A stretch of 64,000 nucleotides of DNA from Theionarchaea archaeon (GCA_018992685.1 JACVGT010000001.1:32001-96000), one strand, 5' to 3'; positions 21,403-31,775 are shown, counted from the stretch's first letter. A program made the numbers and translations. Notes: generated from the letters alone by a model not told the origin.

Positions 21403-21476
21403 TTATTTTGGTGCATCAGCAACAGGTGAAGTGTCAATGTCTCAGATCACAGCCTTTGAGTTCCTGTCCAGGCATG

Positions 21477-22370
21477 CTATCCCATTTTCTGCGATAACCG
21501 CAAGATTTCTATCCATGTATGAACAAACTGATGAAAAGGGTAACTCAAAGGTATGTTTCCCTTAGCAGTGTAGTTCCACAGAGTTTTTCTCGTTTTGCTG
21601 TGTATACAGGTCATTGTTCTTAAGTTCGCTACAAAGATGAACCCGTCCACTAGCATCGGATCTCCTAAATAGTATCCCACGTCCCTTTTCCACCTCACGT
21701 GACGTATTCCAGCCTTCCCTTCAGGTGAGATTGCAGGTTCACTGTAGGGAAAATAAGGGGAAAAGTCCTTGTCAAGGTAATATTCCGGTGCCATGGGCGA
21801 ATAACACCCCCAGCGAGCTATCTTACCACCATCTTGTATACCATTGTTTCTCTAGTGATCATCTAATTCTATTAGAATCTTAAAAAGGGCAGAAGGTATC
21901 TTTCCGTTGAATTGTACGAATTTCTTCCCACAGAAATCAATGTCCCAGGGAATAAAACAGTGAAACCCGGAATGTGAATAAGGCATAATCTTCCCTTCTG
22001 TTGAGGTAATGGTGACTTCAATATGAGGATAATAGTCGAATCTGATGAAGTCATTATAGGATGGTTCGGGAACTTCAACTTCATAGAAATCAGTAAAATT
22101 CGCCATCAGATTATCAATGAGTTCTGGATCAATATTCTTACCCGTATCGGAGAAATATCCTGCATTTTTGCGTGTTATTGTATAGTACTTATCATCCTTC
22201 CCCGGAAAGTACACAACTCCATAATATATTTCAATCTTCTCAACAGTAGCAAGCTCTTCTCTAATTTTTGTCACAGGGAAGAATGATCCTTGTTGAATCA
22301 GAGAGAGCACCACAATAACTGCAATACATGCCCTGAGAGCATTCGTACAACAAGTAAAATACCCTGGCAT
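21477..22370 (-). pseudogene. Degraded secreted protein with PQQ-like beta-propeller fragment
   Basis: ORFs 21852-22370 and 21477-21794 share a frame and are separated by one TAG; the intervening 19 codons are open. 'GDPMLVDGFIFV...LWNY' resembles a single propeller blade. Confidence 0.5.
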
Positions 22371-22554
22371 AAAAGGACTTTCTGAAGAACTTAAGGATAT
22401 GTGAGTCTGTGACAGATTCTGTAAACCGTATCTCCCCTTACTTCTACTACTAATCTCGCTACCTATTACATCACAATGTGGACAGAAAGATTTATAAGCA
22501 CGCGAAAAGAGAGGTAAGTATTTCTGAATAGGACATAGACAAAGAGGTGATAAA

Positions 22555-22665
22555 ATGATGAAAACGTGGATAGATCCGTTAGCCCAAAAGATGGAAGGAG
22601 CAGAAATTGATCCATTGGGAGTCTCAAAGTGTTCATGCGGTTGTGACCCCACGCTCATTCCATAG
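22555..22665 (+). CDS. Putative RiPP precursor, 36 aa (MMKTWIDPLAQKMEGAEIDPLGVSKCSCGCDPTLIP)
   Basis: Hand-translated. GAGGTGA RBS at 22544-22550, TATA 'tttataa' at about 22491, WxxP leader, CxCxC core; first gene of the maturase operon. Confidence 0.85.
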   Translation: MMKTWIDPLAQKMEGAEIDPLGVSKCSCGCDPTLIP

Positions 22666-22685
22666 GAATATTTCTCGCAGAACTA

Positions 22686-22706
22686 TTTCATTTTTTTTAT
22701 TTTTTT
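22686..22706 (+). terminator. U-rich tract after the precursor gene
   Basis: About 20-nt oligo-T stretch between the peptide and the first enzyme gene. Confidence 0.55.
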
Positions 22707-22722
22707 GTGGGAAGGGAATACT

Positions 22723-23694
22723 ATGAATGGAAGTAACAAGAAAATAGACGTTCGGGAGATAGTCATTGCTCTGAGAAGAGCAAAGATTTTTATTGCGAGG
22801 ATAATCTATACTCACAGGAATCTCCTAGAGTATTACCCTGCACACATTTCAGCGCTATTTTGTTATGCAAGACTATTGGACATCGTAGTACCGCGCGATA
22901 TAGACGAAAGCTTCGAAAAATTCATGCTTGAGAATCTCAACCGTAACTATGAGAGAATGTCTTTCTTGGACATTTTTTGGGGAATTTCCTACTTCAGTTT
23001 AAAAGGATATGGGTCCGGGAAATTGAGTGAATTCATTGAGCAGATTTTTTCTTTTCAAAATGAGAATGGTGGAATCGGATCTCACAGAGGAGATATAGGC
23101 AGAATTCCTCACACAGGAAGATTCTTGACCGCACTTCTTTCTACAGAATATGAGAGTGAAGATCTTTTCAAGTCCCATGAACAAAAAATCTTGAAGGCAT
23201 GTGATTTTCTAATTACTGAATGGAGCAAGGACGTTTCATCAGGAAATGCCCTGTCTCACAAGGGTGCAGCGGTATTGAGTGGTCTCTCCAAGTGTTCAGA
23301 AGTGAATCTGGGAATACAGGGGTTAGACCAACAAATAGTGGATACGATAAGAGTGCTTCTGGATCTGCAGATTCAAAACGGTGCCTGGACATTTCTCACG
23401 AAACAGACTGATGACAGGATTTCACTGGAATTGTCAGCCCCTAACATAACTGCTATGGTAGTGCGCTCGCTAAGCGAGGCATACCTTAAGGAAAAAGGTA
23501 ATGAAGCGCCCAAAATGAGTGAAGAACTCTCAAGGGATGTACTCCTGGCAATTGAGAGAGGGAGCAAGTACCTTTGTGAAACTCAAAGCGAATTTGGGTT
23601 TTGGCCTGCTAGTAACAGTGGAGATCTATCCGTTTTTGCCGGGGAGAGCGCATTGGCGTTGAAACCGGCTTTGGAGGTTCTTGAAGATGGGTAG
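22723..23694 (+). CDS. Prenyltransferase/squalene-cyclase-repeat (alpha/alpha barrel) protein
   Basis: QW-type repeats QNENGGIG, QIQNGAW, QSEFGFW, each in a helical-looking context. Confidence 0.75.
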   Translation: MNGSNKKIDVREIVIALRRAKIFIARIIYTHRNLLEYYPAHISALFCYARLLDIVVPRDIDESFEKFMLENLNRNYERMSFLDIFWGISYFSLKGYGSGKLSEFIEQIFSFQNENGGIGSHRGDIGRIPHTGRFLTALLSTEYESEDLFKSHEQKILKACDFLITEWSKDVSSGNALSHKGAAVLSGLSKCSEVNLGIQGLDQQIVDTIRVLLDLQIQNGAWTFLTKQTDDRISLELSAPNITAMVVRSLSEAYLKEKGNEAPKMSEELSRDVLLAIERGSKYLCETQSEFGFWPASNSGDLSVFAGESALALKPALEVLEDG

Positions 23695-24895
23695 TAGAGT
23701 ATCTGAATATGAAAAGGCCATATCCAGTATCGTGGAAAGGAAATATGAGGATAAGAGAGTTTTTTCTGTGCAGTGGCATATAACTGATCATTGCAACCTG
23801 GCATGCAAGCACTGCTATTCCAGCAACAATTCGATAAGGGATCTACCATTGAATGTACTCAAGGCTATCTTTGATAAGTATCTGAAAGCCATACTCAAAT
23901 GGGGTGTGGAAGGGTATCTTAGCCTGACCGGAGGAGAGGCAATTCTGCGGAGTGATTTCTTTGAACTTCTTGACTTCATACATGCAAGATGGGAAGAACA
24001 CCCAGTTTTTGTTGTGAGCTTGATGTCAAATGGGACTCTTATCGATGAAGAACGTGTCTCTCATCTGAAAGAGTACTTGCCCATGTTGTCGCATGTTCAA
24101 ATCAGTCTGGATGGTGTTAACGAAGAGACACACGACTTCTTACGAGGAGAAGGGTCCTTTTCGAGAAGCAAGAAGGGCTTTTCCTTGTTGCGTGAGGGTG
24201 GGTTCACCACTGCATTGCACTATGTGGTGCACAAAGGAAATTACAGAGATGCTTTCAACATACTGGAGCTGGGAGATGAACTCAAAGTAATCAGGGTCAC
24301 CTTATCAAGGCTGGTCCCCGAGGGCGGAGGGAAAACTTTGGAAATGCTAGCACCTTCCGAACTAAGGGATTTATGGGACTATCTGGGCAGCAGATGTTTG
24401 GATTACTACCCAAAGGGAGTCTTCTTGGCAAGGGGCAGGTGTGATCTGTGGCACCTCCCAGACATAGCTTCTGCCTTATACTCCCTGAAGTTGAACTCAC
24501 AGGGAAATGCATTTCCTGCACTATACAGGGTTGGTCAGAGATGTCCTGTAGGGCTCAATGGACTCGCCGTGGATACGGACGGGACCGTCTATCCTTGCAG
24601 AAGACTGCCCATTTCAGTAGGGAACATCGTCCAGGATACATTTTTCAAAATATGGTATAGCTCCAGACTTCTATGGAAATTCAGGCACAAGGAAGAATAC
24701 ATGAAAGGAAAGTGCCGTGATTGCCCGTTTCTCACTGATACACAGTTGAGAACCTTGTGTGCTGGAGGCAGTCCCTGCATTTCCTATGGTAATTGTGGAG
24801 ATTGCTTTGAGCCCGATCCGCAATGCTGGTTTGATCCGTACTCGGAGGAACAGAGAGAGGAGGTGGAAAAATGGAGAAAAAGGATCCTAGAATGA
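23681..24895 (+). CDS. Radical SAM/SPASM peptide maturase
   Basis: QWHITDHCNLACKHC, LTGGE, SPASM 'CPVG...DGTVYPCRR...GKCRDC...CAGGSPC...DPQC'. Confidence 0.92.
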   Translation: MKMGSRVSEYEKAISSIVERKYEDKRVFSVQWHITDHCNLACKHCYSSNNSIRDLPLNVLKAIFDKYLKAILKWGVEGYLSLTGGEAILRSDFFELLDFIHARWEEHPVFVVSLMSNGTLIDEERVSHLKEYLPMLSHVQISLDGVNEETHDFLRGEGSFSRSKKGFSLLREGGFTTALHYVVHKGNYRDAFNILELGDELKVIRVTLSRLVPEGGGKTLEMLAPSELRDLWDYLGSRCLDYYPKGVFLARGRCDLWHLPDIASALYSLKLNSQGNAFPALYRVGQRCPVGLNGLAVDTDGTVYPCRRLPISVGNIVQDTFFKIWYSSRLLWKFRHKEEYMKGKCRDCPFLTDTQLRTLCAGGSPCISYGNCGDCFEPDPQCWFDPYSEEQREEVEKWRKRILE

Positions 24896-25140
24896 GAGAG
24901 AACTTGTTCGTTATAAACGAAGAAGGAAGATACGTAGTCTTCGATCCAGAAGAGGGAGATCAGTGGAAACTGAACGAAACAGGAGCCCTGATTGTGGATT
25001 GCCTGATGCAAGGAGCCTCAATGGAAGACATAAAAAGTAAAATAATGGAAGAATATGATATAGATTCGGAAAAAGCGGAGGAATCGTTGAACAAATATAT
25101 AGAAGTGCTCAAGAAAGAGGGAATTATTCTGGAGGATTGA
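24871..25140 (+). CDS. PqqD-family RiPP recognition element (RRE)
   Basis: 'YVVFDP....WKLNETGALIVD.L......I...I.EEYDI...AEE.L..YIE.LKKEGII'. Start may be ATG 24892. Confidence 0.88.
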   Translation: MEKKDPRMRENLFVINEEGRYVVFDPEEGDQWKLNETGALIVDCLMQGASMEDIKSKIMEEYDIDSEKAEESLNKYIEVLKKEGIILED

Positions 25141-25175
25141 ATGAAGGTGTTTGAAAGGAGGGATGGTACATTAGA

Positions 25176-26810
25176 TTGGCTAGAATTGAGGTAGATTCTC
25201 CATGTAATAACCGCTGTATTCACTGTCTCACCGGAAGGAGAGAGCAGAAAGACGTCATAGGATGTGAAGAACAGATCAAGAGGGCTCACAATGAAAAAAA
25301 AGATGGGATCGTCATATTGGGGGGAGAACCAACCCTGAGAGGGGATATTCTTGATATCGTCTCCTGTGCCAGAGAGATCGGGTTCAAGAGAATAAACCTC
25401 ATAACGAATGCGAGGACCCTTTCAAACAGGGAGTTTGCCGGTAACCTGATACGCGTAGGAATTTCTGATTTTGTGGTAAAACTGTGGGGAGCCAGAAGGG
25501 AGGTTCATGACAAGATAACTGGAGCGAAAGGGAGTTTTGAACAAACAGTGAGCGGAATAAAGAATATTGTGTCCCTCAAGGGTGAAGGAGTTATTATGGG
25601 ATATTCAGGAATACTCATGGAGAATTACGTGTCGTTAGCTGAGCTGATACAGCTTTTTGCCGATCTCCGTGTAAGATGGGTACGGTTGAGGCTGCCCCCA
25701 GTGGAAGATGCACTCATCCCTCTGACCCAGGAAACCATGAAGTACATCTACAGTGCCATAGAGACTGCCAACAGACTGAATGTTGGTCTGGAGATAGAGA
25801 ACATTCCCTTCTGTTTCATGAGAGGCTATGAAGATTATGTATACATTTCCACAACGCGCAAAGACAGACTGGAAGATTGTGATTTCTTGGACTTTGTCAA
25901 GGTCGAACAACACGATGGCAAAACAAAAGTGCCCGAGTGCAACCAATGCAAGTACTCTTTTCTTTGTGGCGGAGTTTGGAACAAGTATCTGGAAAAAGAC
26001 TCTGTATGTGAAGTCAATCCAGTTGAAAACATGGGAGAATCGAGAATGCTCCAGAGAATTGATGACCTGATAGGTAAAGAAGGGCTGTTTCATCCACTGG
26101 TGGAGAGCGGAGAAGTGCCCGAAGGACTTCGAGCAGATGCTATTGTCCACTTCAGCGGCGGCATTGATTCTACAGTAGCAGCAGGAATATATGCCAGCAG
26201 AAACAAGGAGAGAAAAGTGGTGCTCGTTACATATTGTCATCAAGGTCTGCTGAATGTAAATAGCTCGAGAGTCAACGGCTCATATCTCATGGAGAAATAC
26301 CCCAATATAGTGGCACACCTCCACATCTCTCTCCTGCAGGAGCTGTATGTTCCCCTTTGCTTTGGCAGGGATTACAAAGAACACGCCATGAGGCTGTCGG
26401 GAAATTACGGATGCATAGCCTGCAAGCTCCTGATGTATGCTTACTCTGTATTTCTGCAAACTGCTTACTTCAAGGGAGACACCATTATTTCCGGAAATAA
26501 CCTAACCATAATTCCAGACAGAGGGGGTCACCCGATACCACAGATGCCGGAGGTAGTGACCCTCATCAAGGACTTTGTAGGTGAGTATGGCATGGCATGT
26601 GTCAATCCTGTCTACGCTGTGTCGAGCAAGCAAAGGATTGTACTCTTGGCAGAAACGATGGGCCTTCCGGCCACCAGCATGTTTCAATCCAAGTGCATCC
26701 TGGGGGTTCCAATTCTCTGTAAGGATATGGAACCCGTGGTTCAATTCTTAAGAGAGAGAATTCTGCCGATTCTTCGAAATGTATTGACAGCCAACATGAA
26801 GAGGCTGTAG
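25176..26810 (+). CDS. Fusion of radical SAM domain (HxsC-like) and PP-loop adenine-nucleotide alpha-hydrolase domain
   Basis: N-terminal CNNRCIHC, GGEPTL, 'NIPFC', 'CNQCKYSFLCGG'; C-terminal 'VHFSGGIDST' and 'CIACK'. Confidence 0.85.
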   Translation: MARIEVDSPCNNRCIHCLTGRREQKDVIGCEEQIKRAHNEKKDGIVILGGEPTLRGDILDIVSCAREIGFKRINLITNARTLSNREFAGNLIRVGISDFVVKLWGARREVHDKITGAKGSFEQTVSGIKNIVSLKGEGVIMGYSGILMENYVSLAELIQLFADLRVRWVRLRLPPVEDALIPLTQETMKYIYSAIETANRLNVGLEIENIPFCFMRGYEDYVYISTTRKDRLEDCDFLDFVKVEQHDGKTKVPECNQCKYSFLCGGVWNKYLEKDSVCEVNPVENMGESRMLQRIDDLIGKEGLFHPLVESGEVPEGLRADAIVHFSGGIDSTVAAGIYASRNKERKVVLVTYCHQGLLNVNSSRVNGSYLMEKYPNIVAHLHISLLQELYVPLCFGRDYKEHAMRLSGNYGCIACKLLMYAYSVFLQTAYFKGDTIISGNNLTIIPDRGGHPIPQMPEVVTLIKDFVGEYGMACVNPVYAVSSKQRIVLLAETMGLPATSMFQSKCILGVPILCKDMEPVVQFLRERILPILRNVLTANMKRL

Positions 26811-26868
26811 AACCAGTCATAGTGGGAGAAGAGGCTGTTGCTGATAGTGGTAGTTCCTCAGGAGCGAG

Positions 26869-28695
26869 TCAGATTCTCTGATCCTGAGGAGCAAGTTCCC
26901 TTCTCCATGCTTCTACTATTGAAATAATAGTGTGCATATCCTTGTCATAGTACACCAGTCCGGCTTCTCTTAGGGTGTTGAGTGTTTCAAGAAGATCTTC
27001 TTCTTTCTTGTGCTTGAATTTCTGTTTTACTTGGCGCAAGGTCTTAATTGAATCGCAAAAAACCAGAAGGTCTGTCTCGTCGCGGTCCAGCACATATGTA
27101 CAGGTGCTCGATCCCTTTTCCTCAATGAAAGAACCATCCTCATACTCAATCCAGATATAAGAGCAATTCTCTTGTACATAAGATTTCATCATCATTTCAA
27201 AGTCATCCCACAGGGCATGATGAGGTCTTTCCCTGTGAAAACCGGAGAACTCAAATCTATCAGAGACTGGCACGAGACCAGTGGGATGGATTTCAGCCCA
27301 GAATTGGTCGAAATTCCAATCTTTTCTCTCTTCTTCTGACATCTCATCATAAAATACAGATCCTTTGTATAGGACAAAAGGAATCAGATTGAGAGCATGA
27401 GTCCTGAGGAGAAATCGCAAGAACCTGAGATTGACGCAGCTTTCCAAGATATCCTCTTCCGTCTCTGTGGGAATTCCCTGCAATATGTTGAGATAGTCAA
27501 TTCTCAAATTATACTGACTGCCAAGTTTCAATGCCTGGATATTGTGAGCAAACCTGTGGCGTTTCTCCATTTTTCTTAGGAGTGAATCCGTGAGCGCCTC
27601 AAACCCAATCTGTAATGAGGTGAATGATGCAAAGCGAATGTACCTCCCTGTCTCGGAATCCAAGAAGATGGGAGATATTTCGCCGAAAAAATGGTACGGC
27701 TCTCTTCGACTTGCCGAAAGCTTTGATAAGGCTTTCAATAGGATTCTGAACCTTTTCTTATTCCCGGGAAATTCGTTATCCACAAAGATGAATGAATCAA
27801 TGTGGTGTCTATTTGATTGAAACCGTATTTCCTCAATGACATTCTCAGGCGATCGCGCATGATATGAATACTCTTCATTCAGGACACAGAATTTGCATTT
27901 GTTCCACGGACAAGACCTGCTTCCCCAGATAGGGATGAGAATTCGCATTTCGCGGGGTAAATATGTCCTCAGTGTACTAAAGTAGTCAGAATGATCTGCG
28001 AAAGGATACAAATCCAAATCAAGAAATTCACTGTTTTTCTGCGTAGAATGGGCAGTTGTGTCCTTCCGGTAGATGAGTTGTGGCACATCTCTGATGTCCG
28101 TGTTTTCTTCCAACGCCCTGGTCAGATAAAGGAGTGGAAATTCGCCTTCCCCCCAGATGGCAAAATCAGCCAGAGGGAAGAGGTTCATGAAAGAGTATCC
28201 CTGTGACTCGCTGCGGATTCCTCCAACAAGTATCTTGATCTCAGGATTCATTTCTTTCAGCCGGTGAATCAAATAGTAACTCATCATCCACTGTCGGGTC
28301 TTCAGGGTGAATCCAGCAAGAGTCGCCTTGTGGAGATTATTATCTCCAATATATTGGTCAATCTTGTCTTCAATTGAGGTTACGAGCTCTTCGATTTTCC
28401 CTTTGGGAAAAAAAGATGAGAAAAATACATCAAGTGGCGTTTTGTTGAAATTCCAATTATCTTTTATCAGCAAATGCTTGCATATGAGTACGGTGAAAAC
28501 ATAGAAAGGAGGTAATTTCGAGAGCATTGGAAGATCTTTCATTATTCTTCCATATTTCATTATTTCTTGGAACAAGATTAGGTTCCAGTACACATTCTGC
28601 ACGTTGATTCCTTTTGCTTCAAGAAATCCTTTTAGGTATCCTAGTGCGGGATTCGAAATGTCCCATCTATATGGAGGCATGCAATTCAAAATCAC
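26869..28695 (-). CDS. Cobalamin-dependent radical SAM protein (RiPP C-methyltransferase-like)
   Basis: 'MPP...PALGYLK', 'WGEGE', CPWNKCKFC (CX4CX2C), 'QIGFEAL', and a C-terminal segment resembling a winged helix/RRE. Confidence 0.85.
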   Translation of the reverse strand: MILNCMPPYRWDISNPALGYLKGFLEAKGINVQNVYWNLILFQEIMKYGRIMKDLPMLSKLPPFYVFTVLICKHLLIKDNWNFNKTPLDVFFSSFFPKGKIEELVTSIEDKIDQYIGDNNLHKATLAGFTLKTRQWMMSYYLIHRLKEMNPEIKILVGGIRSESQGYSFMNLFPLADFAIWGEGEFPLLYLTRALEENTDIRDVPQLIYRKDTTAHSTQKNSEFLDLDLYPFADHSDYFSTLRTYLPREMRILIPIWGSRSCPWNKCKFCVLNEEYSYHARSPENVIEEIRFQSNRHHIDSFIFVDNEFPGNKKRFRILLKALSKLSASRREPYHFFGEISPIFLDSETGRYIRFASFTSLQIGFEALTDSLLRKMEKRHRFAHNIQALKLGSQYNLRIDYLNILQGIPTETEEDILESCVNLRFLRFLLRTHALNLIPFVLYKGSVFYDEMSEEERKDWNFDQFWAEIHPTGLVPVSDRFEFSGFHRERPHHALWDDFEMMMKSYVQENCSYIWIEYEDGSFIEEKGSSTCTYVLDRDETDLLVFCDSIKTLRQVKQKFKHKKEEDLLETLNTLREAGLVYYDKDMHTIISIVEAWRRELAPQDQRI

Positions 28696-29473
28696 GTGGA
28701 ACCCTCCTAAGTAGCTGGAGTTCCCTTTCTCTTATAAAGCTTTGTTCTATAGAAGTACTTCTGATTCTAAGGGAATGCTTTGAAGAAGTGGCTTGTCAGT
28801 CTGCTAGCCCAATAATCCTGCGCAAGGGAATTTTCTCTGGGAGATGAACCCGCACCTTACTGCAAAGCAGCTGGCCTCCTGGAAGAGGGTATATTCGGGT
28901 CTTTTGTATTCCATGCTGCTTTTTGGTTCTCGAAGAATCTCTCGTATGCTTGAATCGTTTGTTGCAGGAGATGAAGGCTTCATTATTGCCATCAATGTCA
29001 CGAGGATGAAACCTACAGAGAAGTGTGTAGATGCGAAACCAGGATTTCATGAAGTGTCAGTTATTCGAAATGTGATCAATGCTTTCTTTTGTGTGGGGTG
29101 TGCATACAGGGCTTTCATAGGGGTGATCATCTGCGAGATGGGGTATTTTCTCTTTGCGAATAAAAGGTTTTCGTCGACAACTATCCCGGAACTGGATAGT
29201 CATTCCTCCTGCTCTCTTGTTGATGGTTTCTTTTGTGGAGACATTCACGTTAGATATTCTGTTCAGGCCGTTGAATTGCTGAAGTAAAGTGTGTGATGAC
29301 TTTTCATATGTCGGCTACCTGATAGGAAGATTTTTTTTGGAAGGTGTGAGTTCATGGTATACATTGTAGTGATTCAGGTTGACCCTTCACCATGTGAGGG
29401 AGATGCAACGGGTACCATACCACAACCAGAAACATTTTAAAGAGCAGTCTCTCAGTCCACCTGGTGATCATCA

Positions 29474-31213
29474 ATGAAAGAACTGCTCATGGGAAATGAA
29501 GCAATTGCCAGAGGCGCTGTTGAAGCTGGCGTGAAAGTCGTTGCAGCGTATCCTGGCACTCCTTCCTCTGAAATTCCCAACACCATCTCAAAGATAGCCA
29601 AAAAGCATGGCATCTACTTTGAATGGTCTACTAATGAAAAAGTCGCATACGAAGTTGCCTTTGCAGGGGCTTTAACAGGACTGCGTTCCATGGTGACCAT
29701 GAAGCACGTTGGGCTGAATGTAGCCTCAGATGCGTTTATGGCTTCTGCGCAAGTGGGTGTAGAAGGAGGATACGTGGTCGTTTCTGCAGATGATCCTTCT
29801 TTACATTCTTCCCAGAATGAACAGGATAACAGGTACTATGCCCGACTGGCCAATATCCCCTGTATTGAGCCTGTTTCCCCACAAGAAGCCAAAGATTATA
29901 CTATTAAGGCATTTGAAATCAGCGAACAATACAAGATCCCTGTCATGTTGAGGACAACCACCAGGGTCAACCATACTCGAGGTGACGTAGAACTGGGTGA
30001 CATCCTTTCACTGGGGCGCACTCCGGAGTTTGAGAAGAATCCCCGCCGTTACGTTACTGTCCCCACTAATGCACGAGTCTTGAGAGAGAACATCATCAAG
30101 AAGATGGACTCGCTCAAATCAGACCTGGATACTGTAGAAGGAAAGGGGTCTTTAGGAGTCATTGCTTCAGGGATTGCCTACAACTACGTGAAAGAGACAC
30201 TCATGCTACTCGACATTGAAGCAGAGATTTACAAGGTTGCGGTCACTCATCCTCTCAGCAGTGCTATCATCGACTTTCTCAACCGGCATGATGAAGTCAT
30301 TGTGGTAGAGGAACTCGAACCCATCGTAGAGACAGATGTACGTTTCATGGCTCAGAGAGAGAACATACCAGTGACGATCTATGGAAAAGACATTGTCCCC
30401 AGGGCCTTCGAGTTAAATACTACCAGAGTGGCCAATGCTTTCAGGCAATACAAGAACCTTCCTTTGGAAGAAGTCCAGGAATTTGGCATACCCGCGCGAC
30501 CTCCTATTCTATGTCCAGGGTGTCCTCACCGAGCTTCTTTCTATGCCATCAGAAAAGCAGCTCCCAAAGGTATCTATCCCTCTGGGATCGGGTGTTACAC
30601 ATTGGGATTTGTTCCTCCTCTCGGCGCTGTAGACACCTGCTTCTGTATGGGTGCTTCCATTGGGGTTTCCTGCGGATTGTCTGAATTTGTCTCCGATCCC
30701 ATCATCTGTACCATCGGAGATTCCAGTTTCTTTCATGCAGGTATCCCTCCCTTGCTGGATGCCGTGTATAACCAGCACAGGTTTGTGGTAGTGATCCTGG
30801 ACAATGAAACCACTGCCATGACAGGCCATCAACCCCACCCGGGAACAGGTGTCACTGGCATGGGAGATAGCGTGACTAAGATCTACCCAGAGAGACTCAC
30901 TGAAGCGATGGGTATCACCACAGAGGTGGTGGATCCGCATGACGTCAAGAAGACCATTGACGTGCTCAAAGAGGCGGTTGCATCTAAGGAATTGCGCGTA
31001 GTCATTGCACGCAGACCGTGTATTTTCCTGGAGAGTGCAGAAAGAAACCCTCCATACACAGTCACAGATGAGTGCACAGGATGTAAATTATGTCTGAATC
31101 AGCTGGGATGTCCCGCCATGGACATGGTGGAAGGAAAAGCAGTCATTAATGAGTTATGCAATGGATGCGGCGTTTGTGCCCAGATTTGTCCTGCAAAAGC
31201 TATTACGGGGTGA
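29474..31213 (+). CDS. iorA: Indolepyruvate:ferredoxin oxidoreductase subunit alpha
   Basis: GNEAIARGA, YPGTPSSEI, MKHVGLNVA, SSQNEQD, LCPGCPHR, TAMTGHQ, C-terminal ferredoxin domain. Confidence 0.95.
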   Translation: MKELLMGNEAIARGAVEAGVKVVAAYPGTPSSEIPNTISKIAKKHGIYFEWSTNEKVAYEVAFAGALTGLRSMVTMKHVGLNVASDAFMASAQVGVEGGYVVVSADDPSLHSSQNEQDNRYYARLANIPCIEPVSPQEAKDYTIKAFEISEQYKIPVMLRTTTRVNHTRGDVELGDILSLGRTPEFEKNPRRYVTVPTNARVLRENIIKKMDSLKSDLDTVEGKGSLGVIASGIAYNYVKETLMLLDIEAEIYKVAVTHPLSSAIIDFLNRHDEVIVVEELEPIVETDVRFMAQRENIPVTIYGKDIVPRAFELNTTRVANAFRQYKNLPLEEVQEFGIPARPPILCPGCPHRASFYAIRKAAPKGIYPSGIGCYTLGFVPPLGAVDTCFCMGASIGVSCGLSEFVSDPIICTIGDSSFFHAGIPPLLDAVYNQHRFVVVILDNETTAMTGHQPHPGTGVTGMGDSVTKIYPERLTEAMGITTEVVDPHDVKKTIDVLKEAVASKELRVVIARRPCIFLESAERNPPYTVTDECTGCKLCLNQLGCPAMDMVEGKAVINELCNGCGVCAQICPAKAITG

Positions 31214-31217
31214 TCAG

Positions 31218-31775
31218 ATGAAATATGACATTGTATTGGGTGGTGTTGGGGGCCAAGGCATCTTGCTGGCCTCCCAGGTTGTGGCTCAGGCAGCTATGAA
31301 GAAAGGGTTGAAGGTGATGATGGCGGAAACCCATGGAATGGCCCAGAGAGGGGGGTCAGTGATTTCCCACGTCAGACTGGGTGATATCTACGGTGCACTG
31401 GTCCCTGAAGGTCATGCTGATCTGGTGGTGGGATTTGAGTTCATGGAGGCATTCAGGCAGCTGAAATTCCTGGCAAAGGGAAAGAAGTTGATTATAAACA
31501 CTCACAGAATAAAACCTGTAACACTGGAGACATACCCCGAGATGGATTACGATCTCAGTGACTATGATGTGTTGAAGCTTGATGCTTCAAGAATTGCTTT
31601 CAGGCTGGGAAATGCTATTGTAACCAACATGGTCATTCTGGGTGCCATGTCTGAGTTTGCTGAACTCCCTGCTTCGAAGGCAGAGATGCAGGATGCAATC
31701 CGAGAAAGTGTGCCCCCCAGATTTGCCGAGATTGACTTGAAGGCTTTTGAAGAAGGTGTTAAGGCAGCGCAATAA
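31218..31775 (+). CDS. iorB: Indolepyruvate:ferredoxin oxidoreductase subunit beta
   Basis: GVGGQG and ETHGMAQRGGSV; follows iorA. Confidence 0.94.
   Translation: MKYDIVLGGVGGQGILLASQVVAQAAMKKGLKVMMAETHGMAQRGGSVISHVRLGDIYGALVPEGHADLVVGFEFMEAFRQLKFLAKGKKLIINTHRIKPVTLETYPEMDYDLSDYDVLKLDASRIAFRLGNAIVTNMVILGAMSEFAELPASKAEMQDAIRESVPPRFAEIDLKAFEEGVKAAQ

Follow-up and report, generated by a model that had tools for sequence, protein, structure and literature searches.

What does an uncultured archaeon make with a small open reading frame (ORF) that sits directly in front of a row of enzyme genes of peptide-modifying type? This question is raised by a locus within a 64,000-nt stretch of a Theionarchaea archaeon genome (GCA_018992685.1, JACVGT010000001.1:32001-96000), which we call the window and whose coordinates we use throughout. 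Here a 36-amino-acid (aa) ORF, A, lies upstream of four plus-strand genes, B, C, D and E, and a sixth gene, F, converges on them from the minus strand. The locus had been predicted to be a cluster for a ribosomally synthesised and post-translationally modified peptide (RiPP), with an enzyme combination not recognised from any described class. Our analysis supports a peptide-modifying cluster of RiPP type and points to the 36-aa ORF as its foremost candidate substrate. We consider it reasonably probable that the block is a biosynthetic cluster for such a peptide, with A as the substrate and with a chemistry predicted from the families of the enzymes. The gene content, the domain homologies, the boundaries of the block and its rarity are direct observations. 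We refer to the source genome as G000 and to a second genome of the same genus as G001.

Results

A candidate peptide-modifying operon

The prediction of four tightly coupled genes and a convergent cobalamin (B12) radical S-adenosylmethionine (rSAM) enzyme is borne out by the ORF coordinates and by Pfam and NCBIfam domains. B overlaps C, C overlaps D, and Shine-Dalgarno (SD) sites lie ahead of A, C and D. All of the predicted domain calls hold apart from the prenyltransferase label of B, for which there is support at most at the level of repeats and probable fold, as set out below.

C starts at the ATG at 23687, which lies 8 nt downstream of GGAGGT and overlaps the last codons of B. The protein matches Radical_SAM (PF04055, E = 1.6e-22) and SPASM (PF13186, 2e-11), both above the Pfam cut-offs, and its best NCBIfam match is the ACGX-system model TIGR04340 (150.4 bits, cut-off 400). 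Scores against PqqE (79.1 bits, cut-off 381.35) and PapB (NF047865, 64.4 bits, cut-off 340) are lower, the latter placing C outside the curated ranthipeptide maturases. The genome holds three paralogues of C (42, 42 and 39% identity). A literature search on the ACGX system returned nothing relevant among the matches listed.

D, preceded by the SD sequence AGAGGAGGTG, shares its first 25 nt with the end of C and matches PqqD (PF05402) at 6e-16, with 59 bits against a cut-off of 23.4. Its best NCBIfam match is the lasso-type PqqD model NF033530 (52.4 bits, cut-off 70), and it scores 19.2 bits against the PqqD equivalog TIGR03859 (cut-off 46). By family, D would be a RiPP recognition element (RRE).

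F matches Radical_SAM at 6e-16 and, below the Pfam cut-off, the B12-binding domain at 6.3e-05. Against TIGR03975, the model for RiPP maturation radical SAM C-methyltransferases, it scores 175.6 bits (E = 1.6e-51, cut-off 281.85), and residues 3-587 align with model positions 3-600 of 606. Judged from this alignment, F is a distant relative of the RiPP C-methyltransferases that falls outside the curated family. Of the four F paralogues in the genome (58, 53, 52 and 36% identity), three or more belong to other rSAM peptide clusters. A reading of the C-terminus of F as an RRE found no support in Pfam and was dropped. From the family resemblances we infer thioether formation by C and methylation by F.

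A fused radical SAM and PP-loop enzyme

E starts with TTG at 25176, and its homologues start with MAR or MTR except for P0006 and P0007, which have N-terminal extensions. The N-terminal half matches Radical_SAM at 1.4e-15 and is nearest to HxsC4 (114 bits, cut-off 500). In a seven-sequence alignment the conserved cysteines of this half are C10, C14 and C17, together with C213, C255, C258 and C264. The C-terminal half carries the PP-loop SGGIDS; S327, G328, G329, D331 and S332 are invariant in all seven sequences, as are C413 and C416, which form a CxxC, and C507.

What this second half does is best approached through its relatives. Pfam ThiI is matched by E at 0.0022 (18 bits, under the cut-off of 20.5) and, at E values up to 1, by five of the seven family members, with a best value of 1.7e-05. 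Profile-profile comparison (hhalign), which used families gathered from related genomes, aligned the domain with ThiI-like proteins over 190 columns (97.1%, E = 5.1e-11) and with TtuA-like proteins over 174 columns (67.5%), in the latter case with SGGxDS, CxxC and the third cysteine aligned. Measured from the PP-loop, the CxxC lies at +86 and the third cysteine at +180 in the E family; the corresponding distances are +76-79 and +159-162 in six of seven short archaeal ThiI-like proteins, and +75-80 and +170-173 in 12 of 13 TtuA-like proteins. A PDB sequence search with the domain gave chance matches only. In TtcA/TtuA and CtaC, three such cysteines bind the [4Fe-4S] cluster on which sulfur insertion depends, and CtaC, with the same three-cysteine motif, makes the backbone thioamides of closthioamide, a non-ribosomal product (PMC6772006). 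Because the domain combines a ThiI-like profile match with the CxxC...C pattern of iron-sulfur (Fe-S) sulfur inserters, it is most likely, by homology, an ATP- and Fe-S-dependent sulfur inserter. These comparisons suggest a role, that of a ThiI-like, three-cysteine enzyme, which was absent from the original prediction.

The same PP-loop could instead serve a RiPP cluster by adenylating a carboxylate, that of Asp31 or of the C-terminus, and so lead to amidation, nitrile formation or macrocyclisation in the manner of QueC or the asparagine-synthetase-like lasso cyclases. Pfam QueC is matched weakly by all seven members of the E family (best 0.00021) and Asn_synthase by one of the seven (0.033), hhalign gives 92.7% for QueC, the best match of D is a lasso-type PqqD, and the leader of A has an aromatic-x-x-P motif that we take to be lasso-like. 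However, the QueC alignment covers just 56 columns against 190 for ThiI, the three conserved cysteines are placed as in ThiI-like and TtuA-like sulfur inserters, and Pfam detects no lasso protease in the block. We regard carboxylate activation as unlikely and retain sulfur insertion as the reading of this domain.

A candidate precursor and its relatives

A encodes MMKTWIDPLAQKMEGAEIDPLGVSKCSCGCDPTLIP. Its leader, KTWID...EIDPLG, carries a K-x-W-x-D motif, and its core, KCSCGCDPTLIP, carries a C-x-x-D motif (C28-G-C-D31). An 8-nt SD match, GAGGTGAT, ends 3 nt ahead of the ATG; across the genome an ATG lies within 2-8 nt downstream of this sequence at 77 of its 193 sites. TTTATAA is found 58-64 nt 5' of the ATG, and we infer it to be the promoter element of A. 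A run of T8 and then T7 begins 25 nt past the stop codon and is centred ~25 nt before the ATG of B; it could serve both to terminate A, as an oligo-T signal, and to start a leaderless transcript of B, as a TATA-like element. The predicted 36-aa ORF, TATA box, ribosome-binding site and downstream U-tract were thus all found. A scan for sigma-70 promoters and terminators, whose model is unsuited to archaea, showed no excess. A minus-strand ORF (21852-22658) overlaps A; since it has no Pfam or NCBIfam match at E 0.01 or better and is conserved in the sister genome only up to ~22374, A lies in a true intergenic region. Metagenome contigs from four runs of four studies cover parts of the stretch; the peptide gene is covered only by those of runs X8 and X15, which show no sequence difference over it.

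The predicted sign of a precursor, a conserved small peptide ahead of homologous operons, was sought in paralogous clusters of the genus. The xIDPL-plus-Cys pattern of A has no paralogue elsewhere in the genome. Small ORFs of 18-90 aa with an SD ahead of them number 4026 in the genome, and just three distinct ones carry the pattern C.CG{1,3}C, namely A, an ORF on contig C10 and a 52-aa ORF on contig C18, each directly upstream of rSAM genes. The ORF on contig C10 is SD-preceded, 64 aa long and ends in KCGGCACGCFVVNCMGLSAC, with the core KCGGCACGC. It is followed by three rSAM genes, a PqqD-rSAM/SPASM fusion, an opposite-strand GNAT gene and a B12-rSAM gene, and the locus contains the paralogue nearest to F (58%) as well as one of the two that are nearest to C (42%).

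A profile of four peptides identified five more in G001 (E = 5.5e-19, 1.9e-9, 6.5e-8, 2.6e-4 and 0.175). All nine have an SD of the GGTGA type. The eight other than A share a leader of roughly (L/V)NKK-x-W-x-D and, after it, a core rich in CGC, and rSAM genes lie within ~2 kb of seven of these eight. Family members of 40-64 aa lie at L221, L226, L227, L228, L229 and L192 in G001 and at L195 and L189 in G000. No Pfam or NCBIfam model matches the family. When a hidden Markov model (HMM) built from the eight other peptides was run against the 89,032 six-frame ORFs of the genome, A ranked fourth, and second among non-seed ORFs; the alignment extends from KTWID through KCSCGC over 29 positions, with the W-x-D of the leader and the core in register. 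The other non-seed ORF with a score like that of A is a 41-aa frame at G000:C2:73342 (+) (E 0.09), whose match is confined to the Cys core EICGCAGCTCL. We conclude with moderate confidence that A is a divergent, shortened member of a peptide family of the genus.

Several results tell against A as the substrate. Its match to the leave-one-out HMM is weak (13.9 bits, E 0.18) and is inflated by the choice of the first two seed peptides for their likeness to the core of A; BLASTP of A against the peptide on G001:C97 yields no alignment; and A is uncalled as a gene in both protein collections that we searched. In one collection a 45-aa open frame of A found no match, itself included, and HMMER gave none among 1.84 billion representatives of the other; both results are uninformative, A being no called gene there. 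It could be, then, that a peptide is modified by this block and that the 36-aa ORF is a chance frame, the true substrate being encoded elsewhere or being a larger protein. In line with this, when the 352-nt intergenic sequence was shuffled with its dinucleotides kept, an SD-preceded ATG ORF of at least 36 codons turned up in 137 of 5000 cases, and archaeal rSAM/SPASM enzymes that act on large Cys-rich proteins do exist (PMC13692751). Set against a chance frame are the exact and well-spaced 8-nt SD, the position directly before the operon, the Cys-rich C-terminus, the agreement in register of both leader and core with the peptide family of the genus, and the lack of any other paralogue of the peptide motif nearby. 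We judge a chance ORF to be decidedly unlikely, and keep A as the candidate substrate.

The genome as a whole holds 20 PqqD matches, 16 of them above the cut-off, and 24 matches to the rSAM domain of E. Further rSAM/PqqD/B12-rSAM clusters lie outside the window, each with a short SD-preceded Cys-containing ORF (in G000, C10:13962-23286, C3:84211-89455, C13:52535-57224, C1:308646-310645, C17:9218-10670, C18:7978-11088 and C39:714-2779). The cluster on contig C1 has two paralogous peptides of 28 and 35 aa that start with MISMYT and carry CMCC.

A terpene-cyclase-like repeat protein

B had been labelled a prenyltransferase-like barrel, with lipidation of the peptide as a possible outcome. The B protein of the window has no Pfam or NCBIfam match of its own. 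As a family, nine of ten members match Pfam SQHop_cyclase_C weakly (best 6.5e-05), all ten match TIGR01787, a squalene/oxidosqualene cyclase subfamily (best 1.4e-08), and a PDB profile search finds copalyl diphosphate synthases at E ~0.01-0.02. Squalene-cyclase-like repeats adopt an alpha/alpha-toroid fold. Six acidic residues are invariant (E62, E65, D124, E166, D170 and E257), and the invariant columns of the ten sequences include no Cys, no DxDD and no DDxxD. Since no cysteine is invariant, the B family lacks the kind of Zn thiolate site seen in LanC and protein prenyltransferases, and we found no basis for LanC-like thiol alkylation; with the DxDD and DDxxD motifs also missing, the proposal of lipidation or prenyl transfer by B is unsupported. 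The matches support a view of B as a terpene-cyclase-like repeat protein without a recognisable catalytic motif.

Rarity and gene neighbourhood

E has five full-length relatives (53-60% identity) among 5.8 billion clustered proteins, and a sixth, distant one (P0007, 26%); 38 of the 45 matches of E in this collection cover the radical SAM half only. B has nine relatives there, at 43-52% identity. A search of 132 further genomes from the phylum found neither B nor the C-terminal domain of E, and E was not found in the genomes of 40 relatives. A scan with the E alignment returned 61 loci on genome contigs and at least 62 on metagenome contigs, all of them, among the matches listed, distant and with the rSAM domain only except for L075.

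The contig look-up covered all five E clusters, P0007 and all nine B clusters. Members of E cluster P0005 and B cluster P0051 lie on contigs of the same three sizes, 35143, 22646 and 6737 nt. On the 6737-nt contig, which is labelled Theionarchaea archaeon and carries accessions MBU7047201-MBU7047204, the NCBI accession numbers of the E and B proteins are 3 apart, which fits two genes, presumably C and D, between them.

The distant fusion at L075:4720-6459 (27-30% identity) keeps SGGxDS, CxxC and the third cysteine; read from translations only, its neighbours are QueD-like and Fur-like, with recR- and dnaX-like genes near. On bacterial and Woesearchaeota-labelled contigs (L010, L011, L072, L109 and L076), genes of up to ~7-9 paralogous rSAM proteins stand in tandem arrays; they have 22-35% identity to the N-terminal domain of E, and some are fused into proteins of ~600-1000 aa.

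The assignment of the block to a RiPP pathway also has evidence on its other side. No protein of the cluster reaches a curated NCBIfam cut-off, and only Pfam domain models pass. The block (22375-29448) contains no protease, transporter or immunity gene. After the ACGX model, C scores best against AhbD (131 bits), NirJ (120) and GeoRSP, a group that includes haem enzymes. Four of the five E clusters and eight of the nine B clusters share no contig size with the other family, and B is found, with no listed relative of E, on contigs of 31, 18 and 16 kb; the two are therefore not obligate partners. Finally, the L075 fusion stands alone in a bacterial contig with no peptide-maturation genes nearby, which calls for caution over a peptide substrate for the E family as a whole.

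Some of these points would also suit a block that modifies a lipid, a tetrapyrrole or tRNA, with a squalene-cyclase-like B, an AhbD/NirJ-like C, a ThiI-like thiolase and a B12 methylase of the hopanoid or BchE kind. C scores nearly as high against AhbD and NirJ as against peptide maturases, F also matches BchE (75.6 bits), HpnJ and HpnR, the B family matches squalene cyclase models, ThiI is a tRNA enzyme, and the L075 fusion adjoins a QueD-like gene. Yet a stand-alone PqqD gene overlaps the end of C, the best match of F is by 100 bits a RiPP methyltransferase family, at least three of the four F paralogues in the genome adjoin rSAM genes and short Cys-rich ORFs, and B lacks the DxDD motif of cyclases. 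A non-peptide substrate is in our view very improbable, and a RiPP cluster remains the assignment that we favour.

A variable genomic block

The limits of the cluster can be drawn by comparison with G001, of which one contig aligns (blastn) to 21410-22374 and 29449-31735 of the window; the flanking proteins are 89-92% identical between the two genomes. Because the alignment breaks at 22374 and 29449, the genes A to F and 750 nt of apparently non-coding DNA form one variable block (Table 1). At the same slot in G001 (C141:1033-14713), between a conserved hypothetical gene and iorA, 13.7 kb of unrelated, ordinary genes for amino-acid and peptide catabolism and Opp transport take the place of the 7-kb cluster; they encode an AsnC regulator, an aldehyde:ferredoxin oxidoreductase, an aminotransferase, an M24 peptidase, a creatininase and an Opp-type ABC transporter. 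In contigs of related populations from other metagenomes likeness is lost at 21825 and regained at 29462, both ends being loose. The block starts ~1 kb downstream of a tRNA-Tyr gene. GC content is 43.7% in the block and 46.7% genome-wide, which puts the block at the 7.5th percentile; by tetranucleotide distance it does not stand out, 12.8% of windows lying at least as far away, and no flanking direct repeats were found. A recent foreign origin was considered and rejected on account of the missing repeats and the mild difference in composition. In the stretch beyond F, neither of the two longest ORFs, a plus-strand one of 147 aa and a minus-strand one of 84 aa, matches Pfam; this stretch may be degraded sequence or a long upstream region of F.

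Table 1. Features of the variable block and the basis on which each was assigned
Feature	Coordinates	Strand	Basis
Variable block with the whole cluster A-F	22375..29448		blastn against G001
TATA-like TTTATAA, with purine-rich AGAAAGA 5' of it	22491..22497	+	direct sequence reading
Shine-Dalgarno sequence GAGGTGAT	22544..22551	+	direct sequence reading
A, 36-aa candidate precursor	22555..22665	+	ORF translation
T8-A-T7 tract, possible terminator/attenuator	22691..22706	+	direct sequence reading; role inferred
B, 323 aa, squalene-cyclase-like (alpha/alpha-toroid type) repeats	22723..23694	+	family profile matches
C, radical SAM/SPASM, CX3CX2C	23687 (or 23681)..24895	+	Pfam, NCBIfam
D, stand-alone PqqD-family RRE	24871..25140	+	Pfam
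E, N-terminal half: radical SAM, CX3CX2C, HxsC4-like	25176..26045	+	NCBIfam, alignment
E, C-terminal half: ThiI-like PP-loop domain	26046..26810	+	hhalign, alignment
F, B12-binding radical SAM, CX4CX2C	26869..28695	-	Pfam, TIGR03975
~750 nt without recognisable gene, presumed site of the F promoter	28696..29448		ORFs without Pfam match

Discussion

How does this cluster relate to systems that are already described? The enzyme combination had been called new, and we found it neither in curated families nor in the literature searched. The closest parallels lie with the ranthipeptide and sactipeptide systems (PapB; SCIFF, TIGR03974), which share with it a CX3CX2C plus SPASM maturase and a PqqD-type RRE; the 36-aa candidate precursor here is likewise adjacent to its maturase, has its Cys residues clustered at the C-terminus and carries a C-x-x-D motif. 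Here, however, C falls far under the curated cut-offs and groups with the AhbD/NirJ/ACGX type, the RRE is separate, and B, E and F have no counterpart in those systems. The PqqA/PqqD/PqqE system likewise has a stand-alone PqqD beside a SPASM rSAM enzyme and a very short peptide just upstream, but the PqqE and PqqD scores lie under their cut-offs, there is no PqqB or PqqC here, and the core of A is Cys-rich and lacks a Glu/Tyr pair. The cluster differs from those of lasso peptides in the sub-threshold score of D against NF033530, in the single weak Asn_synthase match within the E family and in the absence, by Pfam, of a protease. F resembles the TIGR03975 methyltransferases over nearly the full model, including the B12-binding region and the rSAM core, and differs from them in its score below the cut-off and in its CX4CX2C motif.

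An archaeal comparison is offered by the Crp system of Methanococcus voltae (CrpA/CrpC, TIGR04463), in which a SPASM rSAM enzyme with an RRE acts on Cys-rich substrates and a C-x-x-Q/D motif is tied to ranthionine formation (PMC13692751). As described there, Crp differs from the present cluster in its large repeat-protein substrate, its maturase of a different family and the lack of a PP-loop, B12 or toroid partner (PMC13692751).

For E the relevant likeness is to CtaC, archaeal ThiI, TtuA and TtcA, with which it shares the ATP site of the PP-loop and a CxxC...C at matching spacing. The substrates of CtaC are non-ribosomal intermediates bound to a carrier protein and those of ThiI and TtuA are tRNAs, whereas the domain in E is fused to an rSAM domain in an operon with an RRE. 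If E inserts sulfur into the backbone, its product would be a peptide thioamide, as in the YcaO-TfuA systems of thioamitides and methyl-coenzyme M reductase. The thioamide of methyl-coenzyme M reductase depends on YcaO-TfuA. Unlike those systems, the block has no YcaO or TfuA among its six proteins by Pfam, and a PP-loop would activate by adenylation where YcaO phosphorylates. A 2024 review of RiPP enzyme mining gives, in its accessible text, thioamides only via MbnB, in methanobactin, and for methyl-coenzyme M reductase (PMC11002830). Neither a described counterpart of E in RiPP pathways nor a relevant report of a PP-loop/AANH enzyme with rSAM or a thioamide in a RiPP context was found in the literature searched, subscription journals lying outside its coverage.

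These comparisons can be assembled into a possible route. A would be transcribed from its own promoter, and the T-tract would let transcripts of the peptide outnumber those of the enzymes. D, as a PqqD-type RRE, would bind the leader of A and present the peptide to C, which would crosslink the core cysteines, most likely as thioethers; C-x-x-Q/D motifs have been described as suggestive of rSAM thioether formation (PMC13692751). In E, the PP-loop domain would use ATP to adenylate a carbonyl oxygen and swap in sulfur held on a three-Cys Fe-S cluster, giving a backbone thioamide or a thiocarboxylate. F would methylate an unactivated carbon, and B would be an accessory protein without an assigned role.

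In its most specific form, which we put forward only tentatively, E would be the first Fe-S/ATP sulfur inserter of ThiI/TtuA type to have been recruited to a ribosomal peptide, with its fused rSAM domain preparing or transforming the same residue. Together with the SPASM enzyme and the B12 methylase it would then yield a thioether-bridged, C-methylated mini-peptide bearing a thioamide or thiocarboxylate, a new class of RiPP so far known only from metagenome contigs that are labelled Theionarchaea or carry no label, with a route to peptide thioamides that evolved independently of YcaO-TfuA. At a more general level, the cluster is probably of RiPP type and a variant of the rSAM/RRE systems, though confirmation of the sulfur chemistry could make it a RiPP class of its own.

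Beyond the single locus, the analysis points to uncatalogued short Cys-rich peptides, with a K-K-x-W-x-D leader and a CGC-rich core, across many rSAM clusters of one uncultured archaeal genus, and this family offers a defined substrate set for bench work. The fusion of rSAM and PP-loop domains is so rare, with its five full-length relatives, that its chemistry is unexplored. Should the sulfur reading prove wrong, the cluster would still be a compact, well-bounded five-enzyme archaeal RiPP candidate; should it be true, a PP-loop/Fe-S sulfur inserter in a RiPP operon would add an enzymatic route by which sulfur enters peptide backbones.

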